From Candidatus Levybacteria bacterium RIFCSPHIGHO2_01_FULL_38_26 (GTDB taxonomy: Bacteria; Patescibacteriota; Microgenomatia; Levybacterales; UBA12049), in contig MFNO01000022.1 of the NCBI GenBank assembly GCA_001782075.1, positions 9,540-73,539 on the forward strand: a stretch of DNA of 64,000 nt, written 5' to 3'. The position numbers and the translations under genes are program-made. Shown one piece after another: positions 44,828 through 64,000 of this stretch; the stretch's first letter is position 1, and every line of letters begins with the position of its first letter. The notes below the pieces were generated by a model. That model did not search any database and had not been told where the DNA came from. It was given only the letters and a program-made list of their open reading frames with translations.

Positions 44828-45085
44828 TTATAATTTGCCAAAAATTTTTAAAATAAACTCATCGTATCTCTGTCCAATTATACTATGAAATACAAAATTA
44901 ATAATAAATGCAAGCGGGACTAGGATTCGCAGCGGATGGTCGCCAAGCCAAAAACAGACAGTTCTAAAGACTTTTGGCATGGGCATGTTAATGATAATTT
45001 TTCCTTGTTCTCTGGCTCTTGCTTCTAAAGTTTTAATAAATTCATTCTCGTTCATACATTCGACTCTCGACTCTGTTCTATTCAA
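44828..45085 (-). CDS. putative anti-sigma factor (single TM), 4-bp overlap with the ECF sigma gene
   Basis: 85 aa; cytoplasmic N-terminus then one TM helix; gene order sigma then small membrane protein. Confidence 0.35.
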   Translation of the reverse strand: MNRTESRVECMNENEFIKTLEARAREQGKIIINMPMPKVFRTVCFWLGDHPLRILVPLAFIINFVFHSIIGQRYDEFILKIFGKL

Positions 45086-45627: not shown

Positions 45628-45703
45628 AGTCAGATTATATCAGATTTCTTCATCGAATGATTATTTTTAATTTTACGACTATATATGGGGTATTAAAATA
45701 CTT

Positions 45704-46849: not shown

Positions 46850-46862
46850 GTTTTAAATAAAA

Positions 46863-47900: not shown

Positions 47901-49045
47901 AGATAAGTATATTAGGTACTGCAACAACCAAATTTGGAGAATTGTGGAACATTTCTCCTCGCGCGTTGGCAAAAGAAGCAATGATTAGTGCCCTAGATGC
48001 TTCGGGGTTAAAAGCTCATCAAATAGATGCATTGTTTGTGGGGAATATGCTATCTGGAATATTGGGAAATCAGGCAAATTTAGGATCACTTTTAGTTGAA
48101 GAATTGGGTGTTAACATCCCGGCATTTAGGATAGAGGGCGCATGTGCATCCGGAGGATTGGCTCTTCACAATGCGGTAAACAGTCTTAAAGCTTACCAAT
48201 ACAGGACAGCTTTAGTTTTAGGGATAGAAAAAATGACAGATCATAGTCAGGATGAGATTACAAATGCTCTTATGGCGGCGGGATCAGATGAAGAAAGATT
48301 GGCAGGCGCAACATTCCCGGGTGTATATGCTCTAATGGCACAGGCTTATATGCAAAAGTATAAAGTTACAGAAGAGGATTTAGCCGCAGTTTCTGTAAAA
48401 AATCATTATCATGGGACCCTTAATTCAAAGGCACAGTTCCAGTTTGAAGTATCAATTTCAGATGTTATGAAGAGTTCAAAGATTGCGGATCCACTTAAGC
48501 TTTTGGATTGCTCCCCTATTTCAGACGGGGCGGCAGCTGTTGTTATTACAAGCGATGAAAATTCTAAAAAAATTAAAAACAATGTTTATATCGCTGCAAG
48601 TGAAGTAGCAACAGATACTCTTAGCCTTCATGACAGAAAATCTTTCACAAGCCTTGAATCAGTAGTTAAGGCATCTAACAATGCGTACAAGAAAACAGGG
48701 ATAAAACCAAAAGACATTGACGTTTCTGAAATTCATGATTGTTTTTCAATTTCCGAGGCAATTGCAACAGAAGACTTGGGGTTTTCAGAAAAAGGAGAAG
48801 GCGCAATAGATATTGCCAAAGGAAAAAGAACTCTTTTTAAGGGAGATATTATTTGTAATCCCTCTGGTGGGCTTAAGGCTTGCGGTCATCCGGTTGGGGC
48901 AACCGGTATAAAACAAATAGTAGAGATAACAGAGCAATTACGCGGGGAGGCTGGAAAACGTCAGGTTGAAAAAGCGAAGATTGGCTTGACTCACAATGTT
49001 GGAGGGAGTGGAACAGTTGCCGCAATTCATATCTTGAGGAGTTGA
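47897..49045 (+). CDS. acetoacetyl-CoA thiolase, archaeal-type
   Basis: Catalytic Cys motif IEGACASGG and C-terminal GHPVGATG and NVGGSG thiolase motifs. Confidence 0.8.
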   Translation: MKISILGTATTKFGELWNISPRALAKEAMISALDASGLKAHQIDALFVGNMLSGILGNQANLGSLLVEELGVNIPAFRIEGACASGGLALHNAVNSLKAYQYRTALVLGIEKMTDHSQDEITNALMAAGSDEERLAGATFPGVYALMAQAYMQKYKVTEEDLAAVSVKNHYHGTLNSKAQFQFEVSISDVMKSSKIADPLKLLDCSPISDGAAAVVITSDENSKKIKNNVYIAASEVATDTLSLHDRKSFTSLESVVKASNNAYKKTGIKPKDIDVSEIHDCFSISEAIATEDLGFSEKGEGAIDIAKGKRTLFKGDIICNPSGGLKACGHPVGATGIKQIVEITEQLRGEAGKRQVEKAKIGLTHNVGGSGTVAAIHILRS

Positions 49046-49353
49046 TATTTATGATAACATCGCCTGTAAAACTTTGGAGAAGACAAAAAAGCGCATCATC
49101 TCTTATTGGGAAAAAGGGTAAGATTTTGCACTGGACAATTATTCGAGTTCCAGCAAAATCTTTTGTTGATCAGGCTCCGTATCCTGTGGTAATTGTGAAA
49201 GTGCAAAATGGAGAAAATATGATTGGACAACTAGTTGATTGGCAAAAAGAGGATTTAAAAGTTGGGCAGGATGTAGTATGTGTTTTGAGACGACTGCGCA
49301 CCGAAGAGAGAGAAAGCATAATCTACTACAATATTAAATTTAAACCTCTATGA
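49042..49353 (+). CDS. DUF35-family OB-fold protein (scaffold of the archaeal thiolase/HMGCS complex), without an N-terminal Zn ribbon
   Basis: PYPVVIVKVQNGENMIGQLVDW...LKVGQDVVCVL matches the DUF35 OB-fold consensus (PY.VALVEL.EG.R....IVD......IGM.V). Confidence 0.55.
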   Translation: MIFMITSPVKLWRRQKSASSLIGKKGKILHWTIIRVPAKSFVDQAPYPVVIVKVQNGENMIGQLVDWQKEDLKVGQDVVCVLRRLRTEERESIIYYNIKFKPL

Positions 49354-50417
49354 AACTTATTAAAGTTTCTGCCCCGGGGAAACTTCATTTACTTGGTGAA
49401 CACGCAGTTGTTTATGGTAAACCTGCAATTATTGCTGCAATTGGCAAAAGATGTTTTGTCTATATAAAAAACCGTAGCGATAAAAAAATAAACATCTCAT
49501 CAGAAAGTTTTGGGAAAAGTAATAATTTTACAGAGAAAGAGATTATTGATAAAACAAAAAAAGCGCAGTTAAATTGGGAAAAGTATATAGAAAACAATGA
49601 CATTCTGCTTCTTAAGTCAATAACTTCAGATCCTCTTGATTTTCCGGCAATAATTATTGGAGAAAGTTTGAGGTATTTTAAAAAGAAGATTTCTTCTGGC
49701 TTTGACCTTAAAATAAAATCAGATATTCCGATTGGATCAGGCATGGGATCATCTGCAGCATTAAGCGTTGCTATTGCAGGAGGAATTTCCATATTTCTTG
49801 GTGAAGGCTTAAATAAAAACGTTATAAACGAAATTGCATTTAAATCTGAACAGAAAAAGCATGGTTTTCCATCTGGCGGTGATAACTCAGCAAGTTGTTT
49901 TGGTGGAATGATTTGGTATAGAAAAGAGTCCCCGGACTTAAAAATTATTCAGAAAATACCATTTGAATTTCCAGCAAAGTTATCACGAAACTTCTACGCG
50001 ATTCATACAGGCATACCTAGCGAATCGACAGGAGAAATGGTTAGTATTGTAAGAAATTTACATTCGAAAAGAAAAAATTTTGTGGATGGTATTTTATCTA
50101 ATCAAGAAAGATTGGTGGTGGAACTTTTATCTGCAGTCAAAAGAGAAGATGAGTTAGAAATTATAAATATTATTAAGAATGGCGAGAGAAATTTGGAGAA
50201 ACTTGGGGTGGTTTCTGATTCGGCAAAGTTGTTAATAAGATCAATTGAAAAAAATGGAGAAGCTGCGAAAATTTGTGGAGCAGGAGGAAAGAAAAAAGGA
50301 GCAGGAATAGTCTTGGTTTATAGTAAGCATACGGAGTTCGTAAAAAGCTTAGCAAAATTTCATAATTACAAATGCATAAATATTTATATGGGCGAGGAGG
50401 GTTTTAGAAAGGAATGA
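49350..50417 (+). CDS. mvk: mevalonate kinase (GHMP family)
   Basis: SAPGKLHLLGEHAVVYG N-terminal motif; GHMP ATP motif PIGSGMGSSAA. Confidence 0.75.
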   Translation: MKLIKVSAPGKLHLLGEHAVVYGKPAIIAAIGKRCFVYIKNRSDKKINISSESFGKSNNFTEKEIIDKTKKAQLNWEKYIENNDILLLKSITSDPLDFPAIIIGESLRYFKKKISSGFDLKIKSDIPIGSGMGSSAALSVAIAGGISIFLGEGLNKNVINEIAFKSEQKKHGFPSGGDNSASCFGGMIWYRKESPDLKIIQKIPFEFPAKLSRNFYAIHTGIPSESTGEMVSIVRNLHSKRKNFVDGILSNQERLVVELLSAVKREDELEIINIIKNGERNLEKLGVVSDSAKLLIRSIEKNGEAAKICGAGGKKKGAGIVLVYSKHTEFVKSLAKFHNYKCINIYMGEEGFRKE

Positions 50418-51382
50418 ATAAGAAAATGGTTTCTGCACCTGGAAAATTGATGCTCATGGGTGAACACGCAGTTGTCTATGATCATCCTTGTCTTGTGACT
50501 GCGGTTGATCAGAGAATGTGGGTTACCATTGAATTGATGGATAATCAAGAGTTTTGGCTTGAGGCAAAGGACGTCGGGATAAAAGAACACAAAAAAACAT
50601 TAAAAGATTTGGGGAAAGGTGGAATTCCAAAAGGAGCAAAATTTGTAGAATTAGCGGTTAAAAATATCATTGAAAAGTATTCCTTGAAATCGGGTTTTAA
50701 AGTGGTTACAAAATCAGAATTCTCAAGCGAGTTTGGATTTGGATCCTCTTCTGCGTCAACAGTTTGTACAATAAAAGCAATATCGGAGATTTTTAAATTA
50801 AATTTATCGCATAAAGAAATATTTGATATTTCTTATAAAACAGTTCTGGATATTCAGGGAAAAGGATCGGGATTTGATGTTGCCGCGTCAGTATATGGTG
50901 GAACATTATATTTCTTGACCGGAGGAAGAGCGATTAAACCATTTGGTATTAAATCCTTGCCTTTAGTTGTAGGATATAGCGGGGTAAAAGCAGATACGGC
51001 TCAGCTTATAAATAAAGTAAAAGAAGATTATTTCACTAAAAAAGATCGTCTTGATGAGATTTATAATAAGATTGAAGTTTTAGTTAATCAGGGAAAAGAT
51101 GCGCTTGTTAAAAGGGATTGGAAAGCGCTTGGCAAATTAATGAATAAAAATCAGGAATATTTAGTTGAACTTGGTGTTAGCAGTGGTATGCTTGATAAGA
51201 TGATTGAGGCTGTATTACAAGCCGAGGCATATGGCGCGAAACTTTCAGGAGCTGGCGGCGGAGATTGTATGATCGCGATTGTTTCGGAGGGCAAGAAAGA
51301 AGCTGTCAAAAGAGCCATTTTAAGCACTGGGGGAACAATAGTTAATGTTGAAACAGATGCGGAAGGAGTTAAAGTAGAATAA
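50414..51382 (+). CDS. second GHMP kinase, probable phosphomevalonate kinase
   Basis: SAPGKLMLMGEHAVVY and GFGSSSAST motifs; sits between mvk and the decarboxylase. Confidence 0.55.
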   Translation: MNKKMVSAPGKLMLMGEHAVVYDHPCLVTAVDQRMWVTIELMDNQEFWLEAKDVGIKEHKKTLKDLGKGGIPKGAKFVELAVKNIIEKYSLKSGFKVVTKSEFSSEFGFGSSSASTVCTIKAISEIFKLNLSHKEIFDISYKTVLDIQGKGSGFDVAASVYGGTLYFLTGGRAIKPFGIKSLPLVVGYSGVKADTAQLINKVKEDYFTKKDRLDEIYNKIEVLVNQGKDALVKRDWKALGKLMNKNQEYLVELGVSSGMLDKMIEAVLQAEAYGAKLSGAGGGDCMIAIVSEGKKEAVKRAILSTGGTIVNVETDAEGVKVE

Positions 51383-51385
51383 ACA

Positions 51386-52363
51386 ATGAAAGCGACAGCA
51401 GTTGCGCCGTCAAATATTGCTTTTATTAAATACTGGGGCAAAAAAGATGAGGGATTAAGAATTCCTTTGAATGGAAGTATTTCTATGAATTTAAGCAATC
51501 TTTTGACTACGACAACCGTCGAGTTTAACCCAAAATTTAAAAAAGATGCAGTCACAATTGATGATCAAAAAGAAGACGAAGCAAAAAACAGGGTAATTAA
51601 ACATTTGGATAGAGTAAGGAAAATTGCAAAAATAAATGATAGGGCAAAAGTTGTTTCGGTCAATAATTTCTCGACAAGCACTGGTCTTTCATCATCAGCG
51701 TCCGGTTTTGCTGCTTTGACCCTTGGCGCCTCATGTGCAGCAGGGTTAAATTTGTCAGAAAAAGAATTATCGATTCTTGCAAGAGTTGGTTCAGGATCTG
51801 CGTGTCGTTCTATTCCTGATGGTTTTGTTGAGTGGTTTCCTGGAGAAACAAACGAAACCTCTTATTCTGTATCATTTTTTCCTCAAGATTACTGGGATAT
51901 TGTTGATGTTGTTGCGATAATTAGTAAAGATAAAAAAGAAGTTCCAACAACAGCGGGTCAAAAATATACAAAAACTAGCCCCTTTCTCCCAACTCGTTTA
52001 GAACGAATAGAAGAGAAAATAAAATTAGTTAAAAAATATATTCAAGAAAAAAACTTTTCTCTTTTTGGAGAATTGATTGAGCAGGAAGCATTAGAGCTTC
52101 ATTCTATTATGCTGACGTCAAAACCACCGCTTATCTATTGGTTGCCAGAAACTTTGAAAGTAATGCATGCTGTTATAAAGTGGAGGCAAGAGGGGTTGCA
52201 AGTTTATTTTACTATTAATACAGGCCAAAACATTCACCTTATCTGTCGAGAGAAAGATTTGAAAAAAGTTATGGTCAGAATAAAAGAGTTATCAGTAGTA
52301 ATAAAAACAATTATTAACAATCCAAGCAGAGGCGCAGACTTGACAACATCTCATTTATTTTAA
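51386..52363 (+). CDS. mvaD: diphosphomevalonate decarboxylase family
   Basis: NIAFIKYWGKKDE and STGLSSSASGFAAL motifs. Confidence 0.8.
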   Translation: MKATAVAPSNIAFIKYWGKKDEGLRIPLNGSISMNLSNLLTTTTVEFNPKFKKDAVTIDDQKEDEAKNRVIKHLDRVRKIAKINDRAKVVSVNNFSTSTGLSSSASGFAALTLGASCAAGLNLSEKELSILARVGSGSACRSIPDGFVEWFPGETNETSYSVSFFPQDYWDIVDVVAIISKDKKEVPTTAGQKYTKTSPFLPTRLERIEEKIKLVKKYIQEKNFSLFGELIEQEALELHSIMLTSKPPLIYWLPETLKVMHAVIKWRQEGLQVYFTINTGQNIHLICREKDLKKVMVRIKELSVVIKTIINNPSRGADLTTSHLF

Positions 52364-52367
52364 AATT

Positions 52368-53087
52368 TTATTTTCCAAACCTTCTTTGTCTGTTTGAGTA
52401 TTCTTGGACAGCGAAATCGATATCGTCTTCGTTTAGATCCGGAAAGTGTTTGTCAAAAAAAACATACTCTGCATAAGCTGCCTGCCAGATCATAAGCCCC
52501 GATGTTCTTTGTTCCCCGCTTGTTCTTATAATCAGATCTGGATTCGGATGCGGTTGGTCATGCGTGTCTAGAAATTGATTAAAATTCTTCTCATCTAAGT
52601 TTTGAACTTTGAACTCTTGCTCTGAGCGACGTCGAAGAGTTGAACTTTGAACTTTCTTGATTGCTCGGATTACTTCATCGCGTCCTCCATAGTCAAGAGC
52701 GACATTTAAAATATATTTTTTGAAATCTTTTGTTTTTTCTTCACTTTCTGTAATTTTTTTAAGCAAACTTTTAGGAAGCCTGTCTTTTCTTCCAAGGTGA
52801 ACCACTCGTATTTCTTCTTTTATGGACTCCTTTAGATTTTTTTCTATGAATATTTCATATAGTTTCATAAGATACCGAACTTCTTCTAGAGCTCTTTTCC
52901 AGTTTTCGGTCGAGAATGCCCAAAGGGTGAAGGTGTTTATTCCCAAAGTCCTTACTTTTCGTCCGATCTTTATCGCAGTGTCAAACCCAATCCTATGTCC
53001 CTCAAAGGTAGGTTTGTTACGAGATTTTGCCCATCTCCTGTTGCCATCTGGAATTATAGCCAAATGATTTGGAATGGTAAGTTGCAT
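52368..53087 (-). CDS. uppS: undecaprenyl-diphosphate synthase (cis-prenyltransferase)
   Basis: HLAIIPDGNRRWA and the C-terminal RFG motif. Confidence 0.9.
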   Translation of the reverse strand: MQLTIPNHLAIIPDGNRRWAKSRNKPTFEGHRIGFDTAIKIGRKVRTLGINTFTLWAFSTENWKRALEEVRYLMKLYEIFIEKNLKESIKEEIRVVHLGRKDRLPKSLLKKITESEEKTKDFKKYILNVALDYGGRDEVIRAIKKVQSSTLRRRSEQEFKVQNLDEKNFNQFLDTHDQPHPNPDLIIRTSGEQRTSGLMIWQAAYAEYVFFDKHFPDLNEDDIDFAVQEYSNRQRRFGK

Positions 53088-53120
53088 ATTGTAAAATGGA
53101 GTATATCATAATATAATACT

Positions 53121-53807
53121 ATGATGGCAGCAAGGAAAGCGACTAGCAAAAGGACAAAATCCACAAATGTTTCCGCCTGGGAACCCAACAAAGAAACCTT
53201 TGCCTCGGGAAGAAAATCAAGACAGCTTTTCAGCAAACGAAATGTTTTCATTGCCCTTGGGATAGTAATAATTGTTGGAATTTTGTATTATTTCAGAGGT
53301 TTGTTTGTGGTCGCTTTAGTCAACGGTCAGCCAATAACTAGGTTTGAAGTAATCCAAGAGCTTGAGAAACGAGGTGGCGAGCAGACATTGTCATCTCTTG
53401 TTACACAAGCACTTATTGTTCAAGAGGCAGGAAGGCAGGGGGTAAATGTCACAGAAGCAGAGATCGATGAAGAAGTCAAAAAACTTGAGGATACTCTTAA
53501 ACAGCAAGGGCAGAATCTTGACGATGCGCTCATGTTTCAAGGAACAACTAGAGAGAAATTTAGAGAACAAATTCGTGTACAGAAACTTGTTGAAAAAATG
53601 TTGGCAGATGAAATAAAAGTAACAGATAAGGAAATTACTGATTATATTCAACAGAATAAAGATACTATTCCAGCAACCATGAGTCCTTCTGAAGTAACAT
53701 CAAGCGCAAAACAAGCATTGGAAGATCAAAAAATGTCTGTCAAAGTACAGGAGTGGCTGCAAAAATTACAGGAGGCTGCACAAATTCAGTACTTTGTTAA
53801 TTACTAA
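53121..53807 (+). CDS. membrane-anchored SurA-N/PpiD-like chaperone domain protein
   Basis: Single N-terminal TM helix followed by a helical region resembling the SurA N-terminal chaperone domain; assignment tentative. Confidence 0.35.
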   Translation: MMAARKATSKRTKSTNVSAWEPNKETFASGRKSRQLFSKRNVFIALGIVIIVGILYYFRGLFVVALVNGQPITRFEVIQELEKRGGEQTLSSLVTQALIVQEAGRQGVNVTEAEIDEEVKKLEDTLKQQGQNLDDALMFQGTTREKFREQIRVQKLVEKMLADEIKVTDKEITDYIQQNKDTIPATMSPSEVTSSAKQALEDQKMSVKVQEWLQKLQEAAQIQYFVNY

Positions 53808-54381
53808 TTTTTCTTCTGCTTATAATTCTTTCAAAGACCTGACTTATTAACATTCCAGTAAATAGCACGATTAAATAAATTGTCAAAAGGATTTGAAAAG
53901 GCGCGGGAGACGTCTTCATAATTCCCAAAATAAAAGCAGACCACCAAGATAGACTAGAAATAGACCCAAAGGCAAAAAACAATCTTCTTACCTCCTTGAT
54001 GTTTTCATCAGATGATGTCATCAATTCTCTAAAAGGGATAGATGAAAGTTTTGGAGAGATAAAGTGTAGAAAAAGTCCGTTGATAATTATCACAAATACA
54101 ACAAGCATCTTGGTCAAAAACTTTGCAGACTGAGAGTATTTATCGATATCTGAAAGAAATAAAAATATTCCCGCTGAAACAATTACTAAAAGACCGAACC
54201 AAATTATTTTTGAAAAAGCCCTTAAAATATTTATCTCTATTTTTGTAGCATTAAGGTTTTTTAGAAGTTTTAGGAAAAATACATCTGCAATCATTACCGT
54301 CCCAAAACTCACAAACACTCCGAAAAGATGAAGCGTTGTGAATAAAACTTTGTTCTGCTGTGCAAACCCAATTAAGTCCAT
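53797..54381 (-). CDS. hypothetical membrane protein (5 TM)
   Basis: Hydrophobic profile only. Confidence 0.3.
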   Translation of the reverse strand: MDLIGFAQQNKVLFTTLHLFGVFVSFGTVMIADVFFLKLLKNLNATKIEINILRAFSKIIWFGLLVIVSAGIFLFLSDIDKYSQSAKFLTKMLVVFVIIINGLFLHFISPKLSSIPFRELMTSSDENIKEVRRLFFAFGSISSLSWWSAFILGIMKTSPAPFQILLTIYLIVLFTGMLISQVFERIISRRKISN

Positions 54382-54592
54382 GCAATTAATTTTAGCAGAA
54401 ACGGAAGGGATTTAATATAATATTAAACGGAAACTTGTCAGATCAGATTTTGAAAATATATCCTTCCTCGGAGCGCGCGACTCTTCCCGCAGTCGGATTT
54501 GCAAAATACGTGCCATCCTCCATTTCAACAATCTGAAAAAACTCAACCTCCCCAATTTTCCATCTCAAGCTATTCATTGTTTATAGATAAAT

Positions 54593-55381
54593 TTATTTCC
54601 TATCGGGATTTCTGTCGGGTTTTAAAAGATAAGATGAGATAGTATCATCGACTCCAGCATGCTGTATCCCTTCTATTTTAAAATGTCTGAATCCAGTAAG
54701 TTCATCAATACTTATTCCTTGATAAAAAACTTCTCTGTTTTCCTCGGAAGTCCTGCATATAATTCTTGAGTCAGAACCGGTATGTTGCCAAATATTATCC
54801 ATAATATTCTGTTTTGGCTTTGCAAGAAGAGCAACAAAAATTACTTTGTTACCATGTGTAGAGCCCTTTTGTCCGGTTGAGTTAACTACGCTTATTTTTT
54901 CACTCATGCCCAATTTTTCGATTACTTCTCTTGATCTGCTAACTACCTCGTCATTTTGTTCATAGCACTCAACGTTCGCGCCGGTCATTCTAGAAATAAG
55001 GATAGGAGATATTGTGAATGGGCCACTTCCTATAAACAAAACTCTGTCATCTTCTTTTACTTTTGCGAGTTCGGTTTCTTTGGCAATCAGCCGCTTAAAT
55101 CTATCGTACAGAGGGTATTCTTCTTCAGAATTTGTCTCACCTGATAGTAATTTTTGAGCAAATTCATTCTCCAAATTTGTTTCAAATTGTTCATAAAGAG
55201 CCTGTAATCTTTTTAAAGTATTTCTGTTTGCTAGATCGGAAACATCAGGATCTTTTAAATTGTCACTTTGCAAAAACATCTCATCCAGTCGAAAGCAGGC
55301 ATTTCTCACAGCTGAAGGGTCTTCAAGATTGGTACTTGCCAGTTGGCTGATTTCGGGTATAAGCTTTGGTATTTCGGTCAT
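54593..55381 (-). CDS. nicotianamine-synthase-like protein (short archaeal-type NAS fold; SAM-derived aminoalkyl transferase)
   Basis: ...YPLYDRFKRLIAKETELAKV...RVLFIGSGPFTISPILISR...ANVECYEQNDEVVSRSREVI follows the NAS pattern (FPYY.NY..L...E..LL....kVAFVGSGPLPLTSIVLA....T.F.NFDID..AN..A), and the size (about 260 aa) matches archaeal NAS homologues. Confidence 0.5.
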   Translation of the reverse strand: MTEIPKLIPEISQLASTNLEDPSAVRNACFRLDEMFLQSDNLKDPDVSDLANRNTLKRLQALYEQFETNLENEFAQKLLSGETNSEEEYPLYDRFKRLIAKETELAKVKEDDRVLFIGSGPFTISPILISRMTGANVECYEQNDEVVSRSREVIEKLGMSEKISVVNSTGQKGSTHGNKVIFVALLAKPKQNIMDNIWQHTGSDSRIICRTSEENREVFYQGISIDELTGFRHFKIEGIQHAGVDDTISSYLLKPDRNPDRK

Positions 55382-55394
55382 TGTGAAAACAAAA

Positions 55395-55763
55395 TTATAT
55401 TTCCTGGTGGACCAGGTCTTTGGATTTGAAAAAATCTTTCGTGAACATCACTACTTTTTTTACGTCAAACTTCTTACAGCTGTAAATATCGGACGTAAAA
55501 AATTTGACTTTTCTCCAGGCATATACATGGCAGCCGGATTCTGTCCATGCGACAAAACCATTCAGCTCGTAGAGTGGCACATCTTGGTTATCCCATTTGT
55601 CTGGAGGCCAAGAGTAGGGACCAGAGAATATTCTCATCTTCAGGACTTTGGAAAGTTCTTTGAGATAATATTTTATTGTCTTACCATCGGCATTGATCCC
55701 ATAATGACCCTCAATGATAAGTCTTTGTCTGATAACACTCGGCTCTAAATTCTTCACACCCAA
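55395..55763 (-). CDS. S-adenosylmethionine decarboxylase-like pyruvoyl-dependent proenzyme (SpeH/SpeD class 1b-like)
   Basis: 122 aa; LIIEGHYGIN N-terminal strand; the putative Glu-Ser self-cleavage site in FVAWTESGCHVYAWRK aligns with the AdoMetDC LSESHISIHTWPE; SDIYSCK aligns with DVFTCG. Confidence 0.5.
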   Translation of the reverse strand: MGVKNLEPSVIRQRLIIEGHYGINADGKTIKYYLKELSKVLKMRIFSGPYSWPPDKWDNQDVPLYELNGFVAWTESGCHVYAWRKVKFFTSDIYSCKKFDVKKVVMFTKDFFKSKDLVHQEI

Positions 55764-55832
55764 ATTATACCATTTAACCTATTTACAATTGCTATTGAGC
55801 TCCAATGAGCGTATAATTTCGTTAACAAAAAT

Positions 55833-56846
55833 ATGGCTACTGTAGGAAGATCAAAAAGTGGAATTAATTACCTTGCTGAGTTGTTAAGAGAAGCACCTAA
55901 AACTCTTACAAAGGTTTGTTTCTGGAAAATACCACATAATACTGGAAAAGAAGATATTAGATTAAAAATAGGAAGATATAATAAAGACGGTTTTGAAACT
56001 TTGGAAACTAGACAACCTAAAAGCGAATTAACACTTGATCACGAGGAGTTTCAAAACTTGCTTAAATTTTTATCAGAAAATTATGAACCTTTCAAGAAGG
56101 GTGTTATGAAATACATTCCAATTGATGAAAAATTTGATGAAAAGAGCATAGATCACCTGAGGGCAATTTTTGCAAATCCTGATAAGCAAAAAGTTTTAGA
56201 TTTCGTAGCAGAGAATAATATTCTTCCTGTGGATCTAATTGCTTCTCTACAACATCAAATGCGAATAAATGCGGTTCGAGAATTTGAAGGTATGTTAAAT
56301 AAAAATTTACTCGAGCAAAAGTGGCAAGAATGGTTTGAAAGAAACGATTGGGTATTGGGCAGCGAGTTTGTAAAAATTCTCGATGAAAGGGAAATAGATA
56401 CATCAAACATCACGGACTATTTAATGCAAGCATACGATGGATTTTTAGATATTATTGAAATAAAAAGACCAGAAGGAGATTTACAATTTTGGGCTGAAGG
56501 ACAAGATCACGGAAATTATGTGCCTTCAAACGACTTAACGAAAGCCATAACTCAAGCTACGAAATATATTTATGAAGTCGAACGAGAAGCGAATAGTATT
56601 AAGTTTTTGGAAAGGGTTGGAAATGTAAAAACCATTAAGCCACGCTGCATTTTAATTTTCGGAAGATCCAATGATTGGAATAATGAAAAAAGAGAGTCGT
56701 ATCGAATATTGAACTCAAGTTATCATAGCCTGACTATTATGACTTACGATCATGTATTAAGTAGGGCTAAAAGGATTTTGGGATTTAGTGGTAAGGAGGA
56801 AGCTGTTATGAAAGAAGATGTTCAACCAAAAGATGTATCCTTTTAG
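55833..56846 (+). CDS. Shedu-like antiphage defence nuclease (DUF4263, PD-(D/E)xK)
   Basis: C-terminal domain with AYDGFLDIIEIKRPE (D...ExK core), ILIFGRS and the terminal LTIMTYDHVL block typical of DUF4263/SduA; variable N-terminal domain. Confidence 0.6.
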   Translation: MATVGRSKSGINYLAELLREAPKTLTKVCFWKIPHNTGKEDIRLKIGRYNKDGFETLETRQPKSELTLDHEEFQNLLKFLSENYEPFKKGVMKYIPIDEKFDEKSIDHLRAIFANPDKQKVLDFVAENNILPVDLIASLQHQMRINAVREFEGMLNKNLLEQKWQEWFERNDWVLGSEFVKILDEREIDTSNITDYLMQAYDGFLDIIEIKRPEGDLQFWAEGQDHGNYVPSNDLTKAITQATKYIYEVEREANSIKFLERVGNVKTIKPRCILIFGRSNDWNNEKRESYRILNSSYHSLTIMTYDHVLSRAKRILGFSGKEEAVMKEDVQPKDVSF

Positions 56847-56938
56847 ATATGCAAAATAAATCTTTTTTTGAACTAAAAACTAGGGGAATTTGGAGACGGT
56901 TCTTAGAAAATTTATTTACTAATCCAAAAGTTGTTTAG

Positions 56939-57511
56939 TTATGCTTTTGGGGGTTTTCCTTCATGACCATCTGAAATTGTTCTCCGAATGTCTTCGAGCG
57001 CGCTTCTGTCTTTTTCACTTAGGTCATCATTGCCACGAATGGTACGAAATGGATTTACTTCAAGCGAATCAGCCCTTCCCTCTTTACTTCTTCTTTCTAT
57101 TTCAAGATCAATAATGTTTGCATTGCCATCTTTAGATATTCGAGCCAGTTCTTTACCGGAGAATACAAAGTTGGAGATAGGTCTGGGTTTTCCTTCCCTT
57201 GCCATTATTTGATCTCCACTGTAATGTTCGCCTGCAATCTCGTCTGAAATATCAACTACTATCAAAAATCCTTTTTCTCCTGCAAAACCACGTGCCATTT
57301 CTTCATCATCGGTAAAGAATTGGGAACCGGCGATTTTTGCAAGTTTTGCCCATCTTCCAAAACGTTCTGATCCCATTCTGTTGATAACATCAATAGGATT
57401 TTTTGTCCCTTCCGAAGCAGCTTGTTTTGCAGTATTTAGCTCATTCCATTCATTTTCAAGTTTTTCATCAAGAATTTCTGGTTTTTCCTTATATCCTCTA
57501 TATAGTTTCAT
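56939..57511 (-). CDS. hypothetical soluble protein
   Basis: 190 aa, charged, no motif recognised; lies between the Shedu-like gene and tag. Confidence 0.3.
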   Translation of the reverse strand: MKLYRGYKEKPEILDEKLENEWNELNTAKQAASEGTKNPIDVINRMGSERFGRWAKLAKIAGSQFFTDDEEMARGFAGEKGFLIVVDISDEIAGEHYSGDQIMAREGKPRPISNFVFSGKELARISKDGNANIIDLEIERRSKEGRADSLEVNPFRTIRGNDDLSEKDRSALEDIRRTISDGHEGKPPKA

Positions 57512-57668
57512 TGACTTAATGATACCATAATTATTTGAAATATAGGAAGTTGGGGTTATTTTGGAAAAGATTTATTTGATAGTCAAAATTGAAATATTTT
57601 TAACCTCTGTAAATATCGTGGGTGCCGATTTTATAGCTTTGAACATCGGGTGTTGATTGGCTTAGAGA

Positions 57669-58238
57669 TTATATTTCGTTATATCGGAAGCATTGTAGCT
57701 GGTGGTCGTTTACCATGCCAACTGCTTGCATGAAAGCATAGCAGATGGTGGGGCCGACGAATTTGAATCCTCTTTTGAGTAAATCTTTGCTCATTGTTTC
57801 CGCTTCTTTTGTCCTGGTTGGATAATCATCTAGATTTTTGAAAGAATTTTTTATAGGTTTGTAATTTACAAATCCCCATATATATTTGTCAAAACTTCCG
57901 AACTCTTTTTGGACGAGTATAAATGATTTTGCATTTTGAATTGCAGCAGCGATTTTTAATCGGTTTCTGATGATACCGCTATCGGCAAGAAGGGAATTGA
58001 TTTTTTTAGAGTCATATTTTGCAATTTTCTTTATATCAAATAAGTCAAAAGCTTTTTTGTAATTTTTTCTTTTCTTCAAAATAGTCATCCAGGATAACCC
58101 TGCTTGTGCGCCTTCAAGAATTAACATTTCAAATAATTTCTTGTCATCATGTACCGGTATTCCCCATTCAAAATCATGATATTCTATATCAAGCGGATCA
58201 TTACCGACCCACTCGCATTTGTTTTTATCATTTTTCAT
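57669..58238 (-). CDS. tag: DNA-3-methyladenine glycosylase I
   Basis: CEWVGNDPLDIEYHDFEWGIPVHDDKKLFEMLILEGAQAGLSWMTIL matches the Tag family. Confidence 0.85.
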   Translation of the reverse strand: MKNDKNKCEWVGNDPLDIEYHDFEWGIPVHDDKKLFEMLILEGAQAGLSWMTILKKRKNYKKAFDLFDIKKIAKYDSKKINSLLADSGIIRNRLKIAAAIQNAKSFILVQKEFGSFDKYIWGFVNYKPIKNSFKNLDDYPTRTKEAETMSKDLLKRGFKFVGPTICYAFMQAVGMVNDHQLQCFRYNEI

Positions 58239-58275
58239 ACAGAAGCAATATTAAGACTTTGAGCTTGTCGAAAAG

Positions 58276-58346
58276 TCGGGATGCCGTGAATCGGACACGG
58301 ACTACCGCACCCCCAGCGCGGCGTACTACCACTATACTACATCCCG
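58276..58346 (-). tRNA. tRNA-Pro (anticodon GGG), 71 nt before CCA
   Basis: Hand-folded cloverleaf on the minus strand: acceptor CGGGATG/CATCCCG (7 bp), U8, D-stem GTAT/GTAC with a GG-containing loop, anticodon stem CCGCG/TGCGG with loop CTGGGGG (U33, anticodon GGG), 4-nt variable loop, T-stem CCGTG/CACGG with loop TCCGATT. This is a GC-rich island in AT-rich DNA. Confidence 0.6.
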
Positions 58347-58407
58347 TTCTGCGGAGCAGAATTTGACCTCTTGCATTATAACAAAAAAATGTTAGTATTA
58401 GAACCAA

Positions 58408-59487
58408 ATGGCGAGGGCTTCTAGTAATCAAAAAACCAAACTTCCAAACGGTCCAACTGAAGCGTCACAAAAACTTGATGCCGTAAGGCTTGCAATGGAG
58501 CAGATAGAAAAGCAGTACGGCAGGGGTTCTATAATGCGCTTTGGAGAGGCAGGAAAAAAGTTTGATATTTCTGTGATTTCAACCGGCTGTCTTCCTTTGG
58601 ATTTAGCACTTGGTGTGGGAGGCGTGCCAAGAGGAAGAATCGTTGAAATTTTTGGACCTGAGGCATCGGGTAAAACTACTGTTTGTTTATCCATTATCGC
58701 TCAAGCGCAAAAACACGGAGGAGTGGCGGCATTTATAGATGCAGAGCATGCCTTAGATCCTTTGTGGGCGCAAAGAATTGGAGTAAAGCTTGATGAGCTT
58801 CTTATTTCCCAACCGGATACGGGAGAGCAGGCCCTTGAAATAGCAGAGAGCCTTATCCGAAGCGGCGGGGTAGATGTTTTGGTGATTGATTCTGTTGCCG
58901 CATTAGTTCCTCGGGCAGAGATAGAAGGAGAAATGGGCGATGCAATGATTGGTCTTCAAGCAAGGCTTATGTCCCAGGCTCTTCGAAAATTAACAGGTGT
59001 TATTTCAAAATCAAAAACTGTCGCGATTTTTACCAATCAACTGCGGCAAAAAATTGGAGTGATGTTTGGAAATCCGGAGACAACAACCGGAGGGCTGGCG
59101 CTGAAGTTTTATGCATCAGTAAGAATGGATGTCAGGAAAATAGAAACCCTGAAAGATGGAGATAAAGCAATTGGATCAAGACATAGAGTAAAAATAGTTA
59201 AAAATAAAGTTTCAGCTCCTTTTAGACTCGCGGAGTTTGACGTGATGGGAGATGGCATATCACGGGAGGGGGGAGTTATAGATGTCGGAGTTGAGATGGG
59301 GATTATTCAAAAATCCGGAGCTTTTTATAAACATGGAAATACAATGCTTGGACAAGGAAAACAAGCGACAATAATGTATTTGAGAGAAAATCCAGAAGTT
59401 GCAAAAAAAATAATAGCTGAAATTATGCAGAAAAGCAGAGACGGCGGAATGCCGGTTGCCGTTGGGGTCGAAGAAGAGCAAAGCTAA
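58408..59487 (+). CDS. recA: recombinase RecA
   Basis: GPEASGKTT Walker A; ALDP...L2 region; 359 aa. Confidence 0.97.
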
Positions 59488-60023
59488 TTGTCATCGGTCA
59501 TGATTACCTTTGAAATACCCTCGTATCTATTATATTTATTTACAATCAGCGGTAGCGCTTGATCCTCAATTTCAAATGGTTTTTTAAGCCATTCTACCTG
59601 CTGAAGCATCTGAAGATCACCTGATAGTTGCTTTTCGAACATTTTTTTGTTTTGGATCTTCATTGACAGCAAAAACTCTGTAGGTTTTGTATTTATATCC
59701 CAAGTTTGTACAATTTTCCTAGAACGTGCAAAAAAAAGCCTAGATGTTCCAAACGGCTCTAATGTTGTTTTTAATTCTTCCTTTATAGTTGGGTCAAGCC
59801 TTAGGATTTCCATTAAACCTAATTCTGTTGCCGCACGTGTCAATACCTGATGCGCATAATGTAATTCATTTTCCTGCAGTCTGTTTGCTAACGTTTGGTA
59901 TTCTGGGGATAGATATATCTCGCGTTCTAGCCAGCTTTCGGCTTTCTTACGAATGGGTATCATAAAATTATCCATTCGGTGCTCCGCTTCAAGAAGCCTC
60001 CTTCGCCTTTCATGCATGTTCAT
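59484..60023 (-). CDS. hypothetical protein encoded antisense between recA and recX
   Basis: 179 aa, soluble, Arg-rich N-terminus; no motif recognised; 4-bp overlap with the recA stop. Confidence 0.3.
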
Positions 60024-60084
60024 GCAGTTGCATTATAGCATACCGATATGACAAGCGTATTTATGCTATGATAAGGCAAATAAA

Positions 60085-60552
60085 ATGGGTGATTTTGAAA
60101 GATTCTATAACAAAGCCCTTAGGTTTCTCTCCTTTCGTCCTCGGTCGGAAAAAGAAATAAGCGACAAGCTTAAAACACAAAAAGCATCCCCAGTTATTAT
60201 TGAAAAAGTGATTTCAAAGCTCAAAGAGCAAAAGTTTTTAAATGATGAGGAGTTTGCGAAGTGGTGGATTGAGCAGCGTACAACTTTTAAACCTCGGAGT
60301 TTGAGATTGATTAAGCTAGAGCTAAGACAAAAGGGAATCTCTAAAGAAATAATTGAATCAAGAATCATAAATCAAGAATCAAGGGGAGACTTGGAACGAG
60401 CGAAAGAGCTTGTTAAAAAAAGAATAGAAAAGTTTAGAGATCTATCAAAGAAAGAGATTTATCAAAAACTAGGTTCGTATCTTGCAAGAAGAGGGTTTGA
60501 TTGGGAGACGATAAAACAGGCAATTGACGAGTCGCTTTTTAAAAGAGTATAA
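60085..60552 (+). CDS. recX: recombination regulator RecX
   Basis: 155 aa three-repeat helical protein; ALRFLSFRPRSEKEISDKL and EEFAKWWIE are RecX-like. Confidence 0.8.
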   Translation: MGDFERFYNKALRFLSFRPRSEKEISDKLKTQKASPVIIEKVISKLKEQKFLNDEEFAKWWIEQRTTFKPRSLRLIKLELRQKGISKEIIESRIINQESRGDLERAKELVKKRIEKFRDLSKKEIYQKLGSYLARRGFDWETIKQAIDESLFKRV

Positions 60553-60682
60553 TACAAAAAGAAAGACAATAGAGGGTGCCAGGTAAGCCTTATGAGAAAA
60601 TTAAATGGAGTCCTCATAGGATCAGCGATATAAATGTTTACCCCGCCAAGAGCGGTATTCCCCTACTGTCTTCTAAGATTAT

Positions 60683-61951
60683 ATGAATAAGCAAAATCAA
60701 GATTTAATTGCTCTTGAGAAAAAACTTCTTGATAAAGAGGAGAAGCTGGAGGTAGAAAAGGCGCGAATCCAGGAAGAGAAAGAAAATTTAGACAAACTAA
60801 AGGAAGATTATAGAGAAAAACTTGAAAAAATATCAGGATTTACCTCGGATGAAGCAAAAAAAGAACTTCTCCAAGAAACAGAAAACAAAGAAACGCAAAT
60901 TATTGCAAGAATTATCAAAGAAAAAGAAGAAGAAGCAAAGATAACCGCAGATAAAAAAGCGCGGGAGATTCTAATTGACAGCATGCGTCATGGGGCGCTT
61001 AATTATATCGCAGAGTATACTGTTTCGATTATTAAAATAGACGATGAAGATATAAAAGGAAGAATTATAGGTAAAGAAGGCCGTAATATTAGAGCTTTTG
61101 AGCAAGCAACAGGGGTTGATGTTGATTTGGATGAGGAGGGAATTATTAGGCTTTCTTCGTTTGATCCGGTGAGGAGAGAGATAGCAAGACGAGTTTTGGT
61201 GAATCTTATTAAAGATACTAGAATTCAACCATATAGGATTGAAGAAAATGTAAAACAGGAACAAGGAGCAGTTAAAAAAATAATGACCGATGAGGGAGAG
61301 AAGCTGATTCATGAGGTTGGGGTTTATAATCTTCCACAGGAACTTATTGAGATTCTTGGTCGTTTCAAATTCAGAACTTCTTACGGACAAAATCTTGTCG
61401 TGCATACTCTTGAGGAGACAAAGATTGGGATTCACATAGCATTAGAGATTGGCGCAGACGTGAATATTGTTAGGCTTGGGTGTTTGTTTCATGATATTGG
61501 AAAAGTTGTTGAAGGCGAAGGCAGTCATGTAAAATTGGGCGCAGAACTGCTTAAGAGATTCAATATTCCGGAATCTGTTGTTAATTGTGTTTTGGAGCAT
61601 CATGAAGACAAACCGTTTTCATCCCTGGAGTCTGTTATCGTTTATTTGGCGGATGCAATTTCTGGAGCAAGGCCAGGGGCAAGATATGAAGATGTTGAGG
61701 ATTATGCCAAAAGATTGAAAGACATGGAAGAGATAGCAAAAGGATACGAAGGAGTTTCTGATGCTTATGCTTTTGAAGCTGGTAGAGAGCTTAGGGTGGT
61801 CATAGATCCGGGGCAGCTGGATGACGCCAAAACAACACTTCTTGCGCATAAAATAAGAGAAGAAATAAGCAGTAAATTGGTCGTACCCGGGGAGGTAAAA
61901 GTGACTGCAATCAGAGAATTTCGCGCAGTTTCTCCAGATTCTACGGTCTAA
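60683..61951 (+). CDS. rny: ribonuclease Y (coiled coil + KH + HD), apparently lacking the N-terminal TM anchor
   Basis: KH motif IIGKEGRNIRAFEQATGVDV; HD motif LFHDIGK...EHH. Confidence 0.85.
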   Translation: MNKQNQDLIALEKKLLDKEEKLEVEKARIQEEKENLDKLKEDYREKLEKISGFTSDEAKKELLQETENKETQIIARIIKEKEEEAKITADKKAREILIDSMRHGALNYIAEYTVSIIKIDDEDIKGRIIGKEGRNIRAFEQATGVDVDLDEEGIIRLSSFDPVRREIARRVLVNLIKDTRIQPYRIEENVKQEQGAVKKIMTDEGEKLIHEVGVYNLPQELIEILGRFKFRTSYGQNLVVHTLEETKIGIHIALEIGADVNIVRLGCLFHDIGKVVEGEGSHVKLGAELLKRFNIPESVVNCVLEHHEDKPFSSLESVIVYLADAISGARPGARYEDVEDYAKRLKDMEEIAKGYEGVSDAYAFEAGRELRVVIDPGQLDDAKTTLLAHKIREEISSKLVVPGEVKVTAIREFRAVSPDSTV

Positions 61952-61966
61952 ACTCTATTTTAGATA

Positions 61967-61995
61967 TTGACAAACTTTAGTTCTCCCTGTATTGT
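61967..61995 (+). promoter_or_regulatory. promoter of the HU gene
   Basis: TTGACA (61967-61972), 17 nt, TATTGT (61990-61995). The ORF-track start codon for this gene is actually the -35 hexamer. Confidence 0.4.
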
Positions 61996-62041
61996 TAAGC
62001 TAATTGGATTATTTTACCCAAAGAAGGGTGGTGAGGAAAAT

Positions 62042-62314
62042 TTGACAAAAAGGGAACTGATTGAAATTGTTGCTAAAAAAGCAAATCTCACAAACAAAGC
62101 TGCTAGAGACGCTGTTCAGTCTGTAATCAACTCCATCCGTGATTCTCTAAAACGGGGTGAAAAAGTAGTTATCACGGGTTTTGGTACGTTTAGCATAAGA
62201 CAGAGAGTCGCTAGAGTTGGAAGAAATCCAAAAACAGGAGCAAAAATTACTATAGCAGCCAGAAAAGCGCCTGGTTTTACTCCGGGTAAAACGCTTAAGA
62301 AAGTAGTAAGGTAA
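62042..62314 (+). CDS. hup: DNA-binding protein HU (start reassigned to TTG 62042, giving a 90-aa product)
   Basis: LTKRELIEIVAKK...ITGFGTFSIRQRVARVGRNPKTGAKITIAARKAPGFTPGKTLKK HU signature; SD-like GAGGA lies 4 nt upstream of the TTG. Confidence 0.8.
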   Translation: MTKRELIEIVAKKANLTNKAARDAVQSVINSIRDSLKRGEKVVITGFGTFSIRQRVARVGRNPKTGAKITIAARKAPGFTPGKTLKKVVR

Positions 62315-62347
62315 ATTTGATTATTGGACACAACTGGTGTAGAATAC

Positions 62348-62708
62348 GGTTGCTCTAGGAGGAAGGTCTGCTAGTCCCGATTCGATCGGGACAGGAAAGT
62401 CCAGACAGACGTAGAGCCGGGGATGGAGCGTAAGCTCTGGCTAGTAATAGCCGGTCTCCAAGTTCTTTACCCACATGCGGAATTTGGAGCAGGTTTTGAA
62501 TTGACAAAACTTGAGAGTAACAGAGACGAGTGGGAGTGAAACGTGACAATCCTACCTGCTGCAACCTCCGAAATGGTGCGTTATTACCTGCTTTACGGGA
62601 GCATCGATGTTGAGGGCAGCACGTCAAACGTGCCGGGAGTGAATAGTTATCACAACCGAGATAGATTGCAGAAATAAACAGAATCTGGCTTATTCTCCTC
62701 CTAGAGCA
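62348..62708 (+). ncRNA. rnpB: RNase P RNA (bacterial type A)
   Basis: P4 5' strand GGAAAGTCCAGAC; GTGGGAGTGAAACGTG (conserved GTGnAA region); P4 3' strand ATAAACAGAATCTGGCTTA; the P1 helix pairs GGTTGCTCTAGGAGG with CCTCCTAGAGCAC. The 90-aa minus-strand ORF 62355..62627 sits inside it and is spurious. Confidence 0.8.
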
Positions 62709-64000
62709 CTAATTTGATACGCTGCATAACATTTTGTACTCGCAGTTTTGGCAGTAGATAGAACCACTGCATAAAAAATCGCTTTTTTCTATCTCCTCAA
62801 CTTTTTGCAGTATTTTAACTTTTGCTTCTTCAAGCTGCTCTTTTGTTCTTGTGGTTGTCAATCTCTTTCCCTCTTCTACAAAGTCAAGAGACAAAACTAT
62901 ATCTTCTGGTTTTCTATTAAAAATCCTGTCGTTAACTTGAGTTGCTGCCAGTGCATATAATGTCAACTGAAGATTGTCTTTAAGATCTTTTTCTTTTGGC
63001 AAATTATTTCCAGTTTTGTAGTCGATTATCTCAATTTTGCCATCTTCCATCTTGTCTATTCTATCTATTCTTCCCGCTATTTTTAGATTATTTACAAAGA
63101 ACCGAAAAGGCACTTCAATGCCAATTGATTTACCTAAATCTTTTGTGTAATTAGCTTTTAGATACTCAAGAAGAATATGTTTTGCTCTTTCATAAGCTTG
63201 GTCTTGATGGGCGCGGCTGCTGTAACCTTCATTTATCCAGTTTTTTTCAAGCATAGGGATTATGTCCCCAATCGTTAGATCTTTGTCCACAAGTGATTTT
63301 TGATAAAAATCTTTTAGAGAGGTATGTATGCTTGATCCAAAGCTAAGCGGCGCGGTTGGCTGGAAGGGGACTTTTAAAATATATTGAAGCTTGTAATGCA
63401 AAGGGCACATATTGAATGTTTGGATTTGCGAGTATGAAATATAGTTTATTTTAGTTTTTGTTTGTTGTTCGTTTGTCGTTTGTTTTTGGATGATTAAGTT
63501 TGGCGCCCAATCCAAAAGAGATGGTTGTAAAATAGTTTTTTCGACTTTCTGTTTTTCTAAATGTTTTTTAATAAAATTTTCCCCTAGAGCCTCGTATACA
63601 TAAGGAGAAAGTTTTCTATCTCTTTTACCTTCGCCGTAAAAATTAGCAGCTGTAAAATAAAGTCTATCTCGTGCGCGCGTCATACCTACATAAAACAAGC
63701 GTCTTTCTTCTTGAAGGTGATAGTCTCCCTCGGGCAGTATTTCTTTGATGAGATCGGTAGGGATAGGTATTTGTTCTCGTCTTTCTCTGGTTGGGAAACG
63801 TTGACTTACGAGATTTACCAAAAAAACAACAGGGAATTCAAGACCTTTACTCGAGTGGATGGTTAGAATGTTTACCGCATTATTTTCCGACCAATCAATA
63901 TCTGCTGCCATAGGACTTTCTCCCATTTGCATTGACAGATCAATCCAATCAACGACGGGAAAAATTCTTGAGTCTTCATGCTCAATCTCGTAGGTTTTTA
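62709..64000 (-). CDS. UvrD/PcrA-like helicase C-terminal region fused to a RecB/Cas4-like PD-(D/E)xK nuclease domain with a Cys cluster; 5' end lies beyond the window
   Basis: Helicase motif VI ILTIHSSKGLEFPVVFLV; nuclease core ...CPLHYKL...IDRIDK...EIIDYKTG; C-terminal CSGSIYCQNCEYKMLC. The reading frame stays open upstream of the annotated Met to position 64000. Confidence 0.7.
   Translation of the reverse strand, partial: KTYEIEHEDSRIFPVVDWIDLSMQMGESPMAADIDWSENNAVNILTIHSSKGLEFPVVFLVNLVSQRFPTRERREQIPIPTDLIKEILPEGDYHLQEERRLFYVGMTRARDRLYFTAANFYGEGKRDRKLSPYVYEALGENFIKKHLEKQKVEKTILQPSLLDWAPNLIIQKQTTNEQQTKTKINYISYSQIQTFNMCPLHYKLQYILKVPFQPTAPLSFGSSIHTSLKDFYQKSLVDKDLTIGDIIPMLEKNWINEGYSSRAHQDQAYERAKHILLEYLKANYTKDLGKSIGIEVPFRFFVNNLKIAGRIDRIDKMEDGKIEIIDYKTGNNLPKEKDLKDNLQLTLYALAATQVNDRIFNRKPEDIVLSLDFVEEGKRLTTTRTKEQLEEAKVKILQKVEEIEKSDFLCSGSIYCQNCEYKMLCSVSN

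Follow-up and report, generated by a model that had tools for sequence, protein, structure and literature searches.

The 64,000-nucleotide stretch of Candidatus Levybacteria bacterium RIFCSPHIGHO2_01_FULL_38_26 analyzed here (contig MFNO01000022.1; referred to as the window) carries a gene for a 337-amino-acid (aa) protein (Levybacteria Shedu) that very probably functions as a stand-alone type I Shedu (SduA) immune nuclease, as far as family and general mechanism are concerned. The gene is intact and encodes an unremarkable Shedu protein, from a known family of antiviral nucleases that act as single proteins, and the type of system is not new. Assignment of the host to the Candidate Phyla Radiation (CPR) was confirmed by RecA, encoded 1.5 kb away, which matched the RecA of Candidatus Levybacteria RIFCSPHIGHO2_01_FULL_38_26 with 100% identity and had only Levybacteria proteins as its next relatives.

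55833..56846, + strand: sduA-like gene for the 337-aa Shedu nuclease, stop codon included (open reading frame, Pfam SduA_C, PADLOC SduA)

This open reading frame (ORF) was the only long one at these positions and begins with ATG, while the opposite strand was closed by many stop codons. The start codon is credible because homologues share the same N-terminus with an invariant M1. An identical protein was found on 10 contigs from several samples, with unchanged neighbors; the GenBank copies EKD64626.1 (ACD_50, "uncultured bacterium") and OGH13794.1 (Candidatus Levybacteria, Rifle aquifer) were both labeled "hypothetical protein".

Family assignment and catalytic residues

Significant similarity to Pfam PF14082 (SduA_C, formerly DUF4263) was detected at aa 161-308, covering profile positions 4-158 of 159: E=6e-26 and 91.9 bits, against a gathering score of 27 bits. 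All of the 23 PADLOC models matched by the protein were for SduA, and the best of them (PDLC00385; 473 bits, E=1.6e-142) aligned aa 15-318 with model positions 9-316 of 319. Since PDLC00385 spans the whole protein including the N-terminal region, the protein belongs to a subfamily already modeled in a standard defense-system database. This model and the NCBI product names "Shedu immune nuclease family protein" and "DUF4263 domain-containing protein" represent the own subfamily of Levybacteria Shedu, with no substantive difference, and this particular protein had simply been left unannotated. In a sequence search of the entire PDB, the two characterized Shedu proteins, from B. cereus (8TI8) and E. 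coli (8PS4), were the sole significant matches, and a profile of 44 relatives retrieved them with E=1.6e-12 and 5e-11, respectively. The identity with B. cereus B4264 Shedu (PDB 8TI8, 8TI9, and 8TIA) was approximately 22% and limited to the linker and nuclease. These results bore out the DUF4263 (Shedu) identity proposed in the first-pass annotation, which had been made from the sequence without database searches.

56313..56786, + strand: DUF4263 / SduA_C PD-(D/E)xK nuclease domain, aa 161-318
56313..56315, + strand: motif I glutamate E161, pairing with B. cereus E204 (42/42 in the alignment)
56415..56417, + strand: motif II aspartate D195, pairing with B. cereus D249 (42/42 in the alignment)
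56457..56465, + strand: motif III E209-I-K211, pairing with B. cereus E264/K266 and the E. coli IIEVK block
56553..56555, + strand: motif IV glutamine Q241, pairing with B. cereus Q295 (42/42 in the alignment)

Four motifs have been described in B. cereus Shedu (I, E204; II, D249; III, E264/K266; IV, Q295), and its D249A and E264A mutants lost defense (Gu et al., bioRxiv 10.1101/2023.08.10.552793). Residues were paired using HMMER alignments (the chain numbering of 8TI8 is that of Gu et al. plus 2), and conservation was counted in an alignment of 42 sequences with identities down to 25%, in which E209 was glutamate in 41 and aspartate in one, and K211 was lysine in all 42. As judged from these alignments, all four PD-(D/E)xK motifs of SduA are present at the expected positions, in agreement with the earlier expectation that the catalytic D, E, and K would align with SduA; the glutamine paired as well. 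The first-pass annotation had quoted YDGFLDIIEIKRPE (aa 201-214) as the PD-(D/E)xK core: motif III (E209-x-K211) indeed lies inside this block, but the motif II aspartate is D195, six residues upstream, and not D202 or D206. The other two blocks that it quoted, ILIFGRS (aa 273-279) and LTIMTYDHVL (aa 300-309), were found as described, and all three fell within blocks aligning with solved Shedu proteins.

Predicted structure and the N-terminal domain

An AlphaFold model of the monomer, built on diverse full-length relatives from a search of 1.84 billion cluster representatives, had a mean predicted local distance difference test score (pLDDT) of 84 and a predicted template modeling score of 0.66, and its pLDDT exceeded 90 over most of the nuclease core. 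When this model was compared with the PDB using Foldseek, Shedu structures occupied places 1-9, as the proposed likeness to SduA had implied, and were followed by N.BspD6I, EndoMS, and NucS; the match with the B. cereus nuclease-domain octamer gave target-normalized TM-scores of 0.77-0.78 and a root-mean-square deviation (rmsd) of 3.3-3.5 Å. The full-length superposition on E. coli SduA (PDB 8PS4 and 8PS5), than which the Levybacteria protein is 70 residues shorter, was poor (rmsd 10-15 Å). On the basis of the model, the nuclease-domain fold is closer to solved Shedu structures than to other nucleases. The NucS/EndoMS mismatch endonuclease (PDB 2VLD and 5GKE), which has the PD-(D/E)xK core in common, was the closest non-Shedu fold, and Gu et al. 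(bioRxiv 10.1101/2023.08.10.552793) likewise named it as the nearest fold for Shedu. Membership in the NucS/EndoMS family was rejected at both the sequence and fold levels, with Shedu structures matching better.

55833..56117, + strand: putative N-terminal sensor/regulatory domain, aa 1-~95, predicted beta-beta-beta-beta-alpha (AlphaFold model, conservation)
56118..56312, + strand: helical linker, aa ~96-160 (model helices 103-113, 118-127, and 132-155)

The model fell into three parts, with a beta-rich N-terminal domain followed by the helical linker (103-155) and then the nuclease (161-316). The linker is equivalent to those of B. cereus (118-170) and E. coli (146-188) SduA, and its profile alignment with the PDB began at approximately aa 112. 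In this predicted layout, Levybacteria Shedu is the same as both characterized Shedu proteins, corresponding to "type I" in both published schemes. The N-terminal domain (pLDDT of 84-94 at aa 1-50 and 71-90) contained short strands near aa 2-6, strands at 12-20, 24-34, and 40-50, and a helix at 70-88, and two blocks, LKIGRY (aa 44-49) and PKSELTL (aa 62-68), were conserved across the subfamily. Other Shedu proteins with the same linker and nuclease carried longer, unrelated N-termini (e.g. P0269, P0276, P0281, and P0294). The "short variable N-terminal domain" of the first-pass annotation was, therefore, only partly correct: the domain is not especially short (~95 aa plus a 65-aa helical linker) and is well kept inside the large subfamily, but is exchanged between subfamilies.

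No significant PDB or Pfam match was obtained with a profile of the N-terminal domain, and the Foldseek match with Pur-alpha was weak (E=0.64). The order of its elements fits the beta-beta-beta-beta-alpha unit of the sPC4/Whirly fold, which Gu et al. (bioRxiv 10.1101/2023.08.10.552793) proposed for the N-terminal domain of B. cereus "Type 1A" Shedu; that domain has 117 aa, versus ~95 aa here, and sequence similarity between the two was not detectable. In E. coli SduA, the domain at the N-terminus (aa 1-145) has a fold without known homologues and clamps free DNA ends, and the enzyme nicks ~13-14 nt from the 5' end (Loeff et al., bioRxiv 10.1101/2023.08.10.552762). The present profile failed to retrieve 8PS4 even at E<=10, and both profile and single-sequence alignments to 8PS4 began at query aa 158; judged by sequence, the N-terminal domain is not homologous to the E. 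coli end-clamp domain. The sole full-length candidate match of the profile was PDB 2X5T ("ORF 131", 96 aa), with which aa 8-90 (nt ~55854-56102) aligned nearly end to end at a non-significant E=0.05.

Distribution of the subfamily and horizontal transfer

A word-indexed search returned 1,623 relatives, the best 120 of which were all 69-83% identical and full-length; length and N-terminus were shared by more than 120 clusters with 70-83% identity. Among species-representative genomes, the subfamily was found in CPR bacteria (Levybacteria, Falkowbacteria, Parcubacteria, Saccharibacteria, Shapirobacteria, and Moranbacteria) and, beyond them, in Elusimicrobia, a PVC-group bacterium, Zixibacteria, Omnitrophota, Gammaproteobacteria including Legionella, Thermodesulfovibrionales, and Poribacteria, and further in Flavobacteriaceae, Ignavibacteria, Actinobacteria, one alphaproteobacterium, and one Nanoarchaeota metagenome-assembled genome. 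The cross-phylum identity to Levybacteria Shedu was 52-78% over more than 15 phyla. In a simple neighbor-joining tree, with no bootstrap, CPR copies were mixed among those of other phyla, and the two Levybacteria copies paired. In 26 of 28 other genomes, the AT content of the Shedu gene exceeded that of its flanks, with a difference of up to 15 points in high-GC hosts, and no neighbor was shared between the window and 35 related Shedu loci, including that of the other Levybacteria genome. The Shedu gene is thus horizontally mobile and locus-variable. As for the transfer vehicle, one prophage-like IMG/VR contig carried a copy with 56% identity; no copy was found in cultured phages, and plasmids carried only distant Shedu (<34%).

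Flanking genes elsewhere were enriched in DNA methylases and ResIII helicase-nucleases. The order Mod-Res-Shedu, with type III Mod and Res genes, was found at four loci (L008, L009, L011, and L013) and HsdR-Shedu, with a type I HsdR gene, at one (L021), with gaps of a few bases, and Abi, GmrSD, and Mrr genes neighbored other copies. A restriction-modification (RM) partner was present at approximately 8 of 28 subfamily loci, most being without one; these RM-linked loci agree with a published Shedu survey, in which 602 of 5,499 Shedu genes were inside RM systems. Two copies appeared to be decaying: one on a Poribacteria chromosome (L037 8001-8910) was split into two ORFs, and one on an Ignavibacteria contig (L041 7992-8483) was represented by a partial ORF only.

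The gene had been regarded as notable because defense systems are sparse in CPR genomes. Very few have indeed been identified in Patescibacteria (PMC12366544), but the present subfamily is common in CPR bacteria and many other phyla, and a 2023 census (Gu et al., bioRxiv 10.1101/2023.08.10.552793) already lists Shedu from Patescibacteria, Microgenomates, Parcubacteria, Saccharibacteria, Falkowbacteria, and Moranbacteria.

The locus beside tRNA-Pro and recA

The Shedu gene is preceded by a mevalonate operon, UppS, a SurA-like gene, a membrane protein, and a pair of nicotianamine synthase (NAS)-like and S-adenosylmethionine decarboxylase (AdoMetDC)-like genes, and is followed by a 190-aa hypothetical protein, Tag glycosylase, tRNA-Pro(GGG), RecA, a 179-aa hypothetical protein, RecX, RNase Y, HU, and a UvrD/PD-(D/E)xK helicase-nuclease. 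The closest syntenic genome found was L122/L123 (RecA 89% identical), with which the window was colinear at 44899-53737 and 58275-63926; an attempt to find empty sites through Tag relatives in metagenome contigs returned unrelated genomes without synteny at 80 of 80 loci, and RecA relatives were used instead.

53808..58274, no strand: variable segment between the SurA-like gene and tRNA-Pro (L122 colinearity lost at 53737 and back at 58275)
58275..58346, - strand: tRNA-Pro(GGG), 3' end towards the variable segment (ARAGORN; kept beside recA in relatives)

The interval from the SurA-like gene to tRNA-Pro measured 4.5 kb with seven genes in the window (membrane protein, 44-aa ORF, NAS-like, AdoMetDC-like, Shedu, 190-aa hypothetical, and Tag), versus 1.1 kb in L122 with a PIN-domain gene and a 92-aa gene only. 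Each of the three relatives checked had tRNA-Pro(GGG) beside recA, the 3' end of the tRNA pointing to the variable side. The content upstream of recA was nothing in L126, metabolic genes in L128, a hydrolase and a 23S_rRNA_IVP protein in L129, and a BsaWI-type restriction enzyme with a LexA-methylase fusion and a GIY-YIG protein in L130, while in L124 recA and recX were separated by an inserted RM system. The region upstream of tRNA-Pro/recA is, therefore, a plasticity hot spot in Levybacteria with a different cargo in every genome examined: defense-type in three of them (PIN toxin pair, RM systems, and Shedu) and metabolic genes or nothing in the others.

No integrase, transposase, or recombinase gene was found among the Shedu neighbors, a search for att-like direct repeats or pieces of tRNA at the borders of the variable segment gave only short repeats at chance level, and neither GC nor GC at third codon positions was anomalous at the Shedu locus. 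A classical integrative island was rejected because mobility genes and att-like repeats were both absent. Since the segment is variable but lacks mobility machinery, "cargo of a plasticity hot spot next to tRNA-Pro/recA" is better wording than the "island cargo" originally suggested, of which the variable segment by tRNA-Pro stands.

A promoter-like sequence was located immediately upstream of the gene.

55789..55817, + strand: candidate sigma-70-like promoter, TTGCTA, 17 nt, TATAAT (consensus scan), ending 15 nt before the ATG

The candidate lies in a 36-bp block (55788-55823) that is single-copy in the window and 89% identical to L122 8790-8825 (blastn E=4e-6), where it is directly 3' of the SurA-like gene. 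Because the block was found only in the genome of the window and L122/L123 and was missing from other Shedu loci, it is a backbone element and not part of a Shedu cassette; the idea that it travels with Shedu was rejected on the same grounds. In the simplest reading, Shedu, the 190-aa gene, and tag occupy the slot of the L122 PIN pair, and the four minus-strand genes (53797-55763) are a separate insertion between the SurA-like gene and the 36-bp block. Judging from its sequence, Shedu is probably transcribed from this putative backbone promoter. In L122, the 3' end of the convergent PIN gene lies downstream of the block, which would there drive antisense transcription into the toxin gene.

Proposed function and alternatives

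Characterized Shedu proteins work as single genes, and their full-length forms are non-toxic and protect against phage; both are tetramers formed via the nuclease domains, held inactive through their N-terminal regions and toxic once these are removed (Gu et al.; Loeff et al.). By analogy with these two proteins, Levybacteria Shedu would form a homotetramer via its nuclease domains, with the N-terminal and linker regions holding the enzyme inactive. The N-terminal domains may bind an infection-specific feature of nucleic acid, for instance a free end, or a single-stranded overhang, in phage DNA that has been injected or is replicating; this binding would complete the active site (D195 moving in), so that the invading DNA is nicked or cut, the circular host chromosome would be spared, and no partner protein would be needed. 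Since the N-terminal domain matched neither characterized sensor by sequence, the cue is one that we infer. We favor the general model, in which nucleic-acid sensing by the N-terminal domain would relieve the auto-inhibition of a tetrameric nuclease that damages linear invading DNA, and do not rank the two published sub-mechanisms. The gene itself would have arrived by horizontal transfer into the plasticity hot spot upstream of tRNA-Pro/recA.

The proposal of a single-gene system in the first-pass annotation was supported: none of the neighbors recurred at the 35 related loci, and no defense-family partner was present. The 190-aa gene and the NAS-like/AdoMetDC-like pair were rejected as Shedu partners, having no homologues beside Shedu elsewhere and no specific match with a defense family. 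The sole match with a defense model among near neighbors was that of the NAS-like protein with mad2 (E=2e-6), a weak, generic methyltransferase match, and a PADLOC scan of the other window proteins (excluding obvious ribosomal and mevalonate-operon ORFs) gave only generic TatD and methyltransferase matches.

Several features of the locus weigh against an immune nuclease acquired by transfer: mobility genes are absent, no other defense gene was found at the locus, the putative promoter is a candidate by its consensus match alone, and the flanking DNA-repair genes tag, recA, and recX allow a repair reading. According to the latter, the protein would be a housekeeping DNA-repair endonuclease acting in the manner of NucS/EndoMS and recruited to the tag-recA-recX neighborhood. 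The flanking Tag glycosylase, RecA, RecX, and UvrD/PD-(D/E)xK helicase-nuclease are in line with such a role, as is the presence of NucS/EndoMS among the nearest folds outside Shedu; however, the gene is absent from the same site in related genomes, its spread across phyla is patchy, and its similarity to Shedu is much stronger, which together make a repair role extremely improbable. The Mod-Res-Shedu and HsdR-Shedu loci raise another interpretation, namely, that the gene is an orphaned accessory of an RM module, perhaps inactive here without its partner genes, for which the split copy in L037 (and probably L041, where only a partial ORF matches) may be precedents. An intact ORF with all motifs, identical in several independent samples, argues against this, and RM partners occurred at only the minority of loci described above, while characterized Shedu proteins act alone; we consider this explanation very unlikely.

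A selfish or addictive nuclease that persists by mobility or toxicity, with little antiviral benefit, is suggested by the slot, which in the sister genome L122 is taken by a PIN toxin-antitoxin pair (the PIN gene with the 92-aa gene), by the toxicity of truncated Shedu nuclease domains, and by the wide cross-phylum spread. This is highly improbable given that there is no adjacent antitoxin-like partner or mobility gene, that full-length characterized Shedu proteins are non-toxic and protect against phage, and that the ORF is intact and stable in the population. A stand-alone Shedu immune nuclease, therefore, remains the preferred assignment. A more far-reaching combination, in which the N-terminal domain is a sensor unlike either characterized one and responds to another infection cue, defense genes flow with unusual activity between ultra-small episymbionts and other cells, and the site is a recurrent landing pad in Levybacteria, is unlikely as a whole; under this combination, such gene flow may be marked by the subfamily's near-identical copies, which occur in CPR bacteria and DPANN archaea as well as in many phyla of free-living organisms.

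These results provide a firm annotation for a protein that has been "hypothetical" in GenBank since 2012 and place an intact gene of innate immunity on record for a CPR genome, which is a useful data point and no surprise to a specialist. The occurrence of one Shedu subfamily at 52-78% identity across CPR bacteria, DPANN archaea, and more than a dozen other phyla bears on inter-phylum gene flow into reduced genomes. This cross-phylum sharing and the recA-side hot spot are modestly interesting side results, and the working principle of Shedu is unchanged.

Other genes of the window and of related loci

Two of the related Levybacteria loci combined LexA with RM genes. In L130 (2324-4547), a 469-aa fusion of LexA DNA-binding, S24 peptidase, and N6_N4 DNA methylase domains was encoded beside the BsaWI-type restriction enzyme, and in L124 (11137-16326), a LexA gene followed by an Eco57I-type RM enzyme, a GIY-YIG protein, and a specificity subunit was located between recA and recX. 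LexA/S24 proteins were found in 3 of 92 flanking ORFs near the same Shedu subfamily in other phyla. The juxtapositions of LexA/S24 and RM genes may reflect a link of RM control to the SOS response.

In the variable segment, the NAS-like gene (262 aa, Pfam NAS 59 bits) adjoins the AdoMetDC-like gene (122 aa) at 54593-55763 (- strand), and both are absent from the syntenic L122. Such a pair suggests that a nicotianamine- or opine-type aminobutyrate metabolite or metallophore is made, a capacity not expected of a reduced CPR genome. Two hypothetical proteins had no Pfam or PADLOC match: the 190-aa protein (56939-57511, - strand), inside the variable segment and convergent with Shedu, and the 179-aa protein (59484-60023, - strand) between recA and recX, which occupies the slot of the LexA gene and RM system in L124 and has no counterpart there in L122.

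The remaining genes of the window encode chaperones, translation factors, ribosomal proteins, and similar functions. The mevalonate operon (45704-52363, + strand), with UppS next to it, appears complete: HMG-CoA reductase, two GHMP kinases, diphosphomevalonate decarboxylase, and an archaeal-type trio of an ACP_syn_III-like HMG-CoA synthase, thiolase, and DUF35/OB-fold protein. It is common to L122 and is elsewhere or absent near recA in L126 and L128-L130. At 62709-64000 (- strand), the end of the window cuts a fusion of ~970 aa between UvrD helicase and a PD-(D/E)xK (Cas4-like) domain, leaving its C-terminal part; this fusion is conserved in several Levybacteria relatives and, despite many PADLOC matches with GajB and Cas4, resembles AddAB/PcrA-type repair proteins, not defense.
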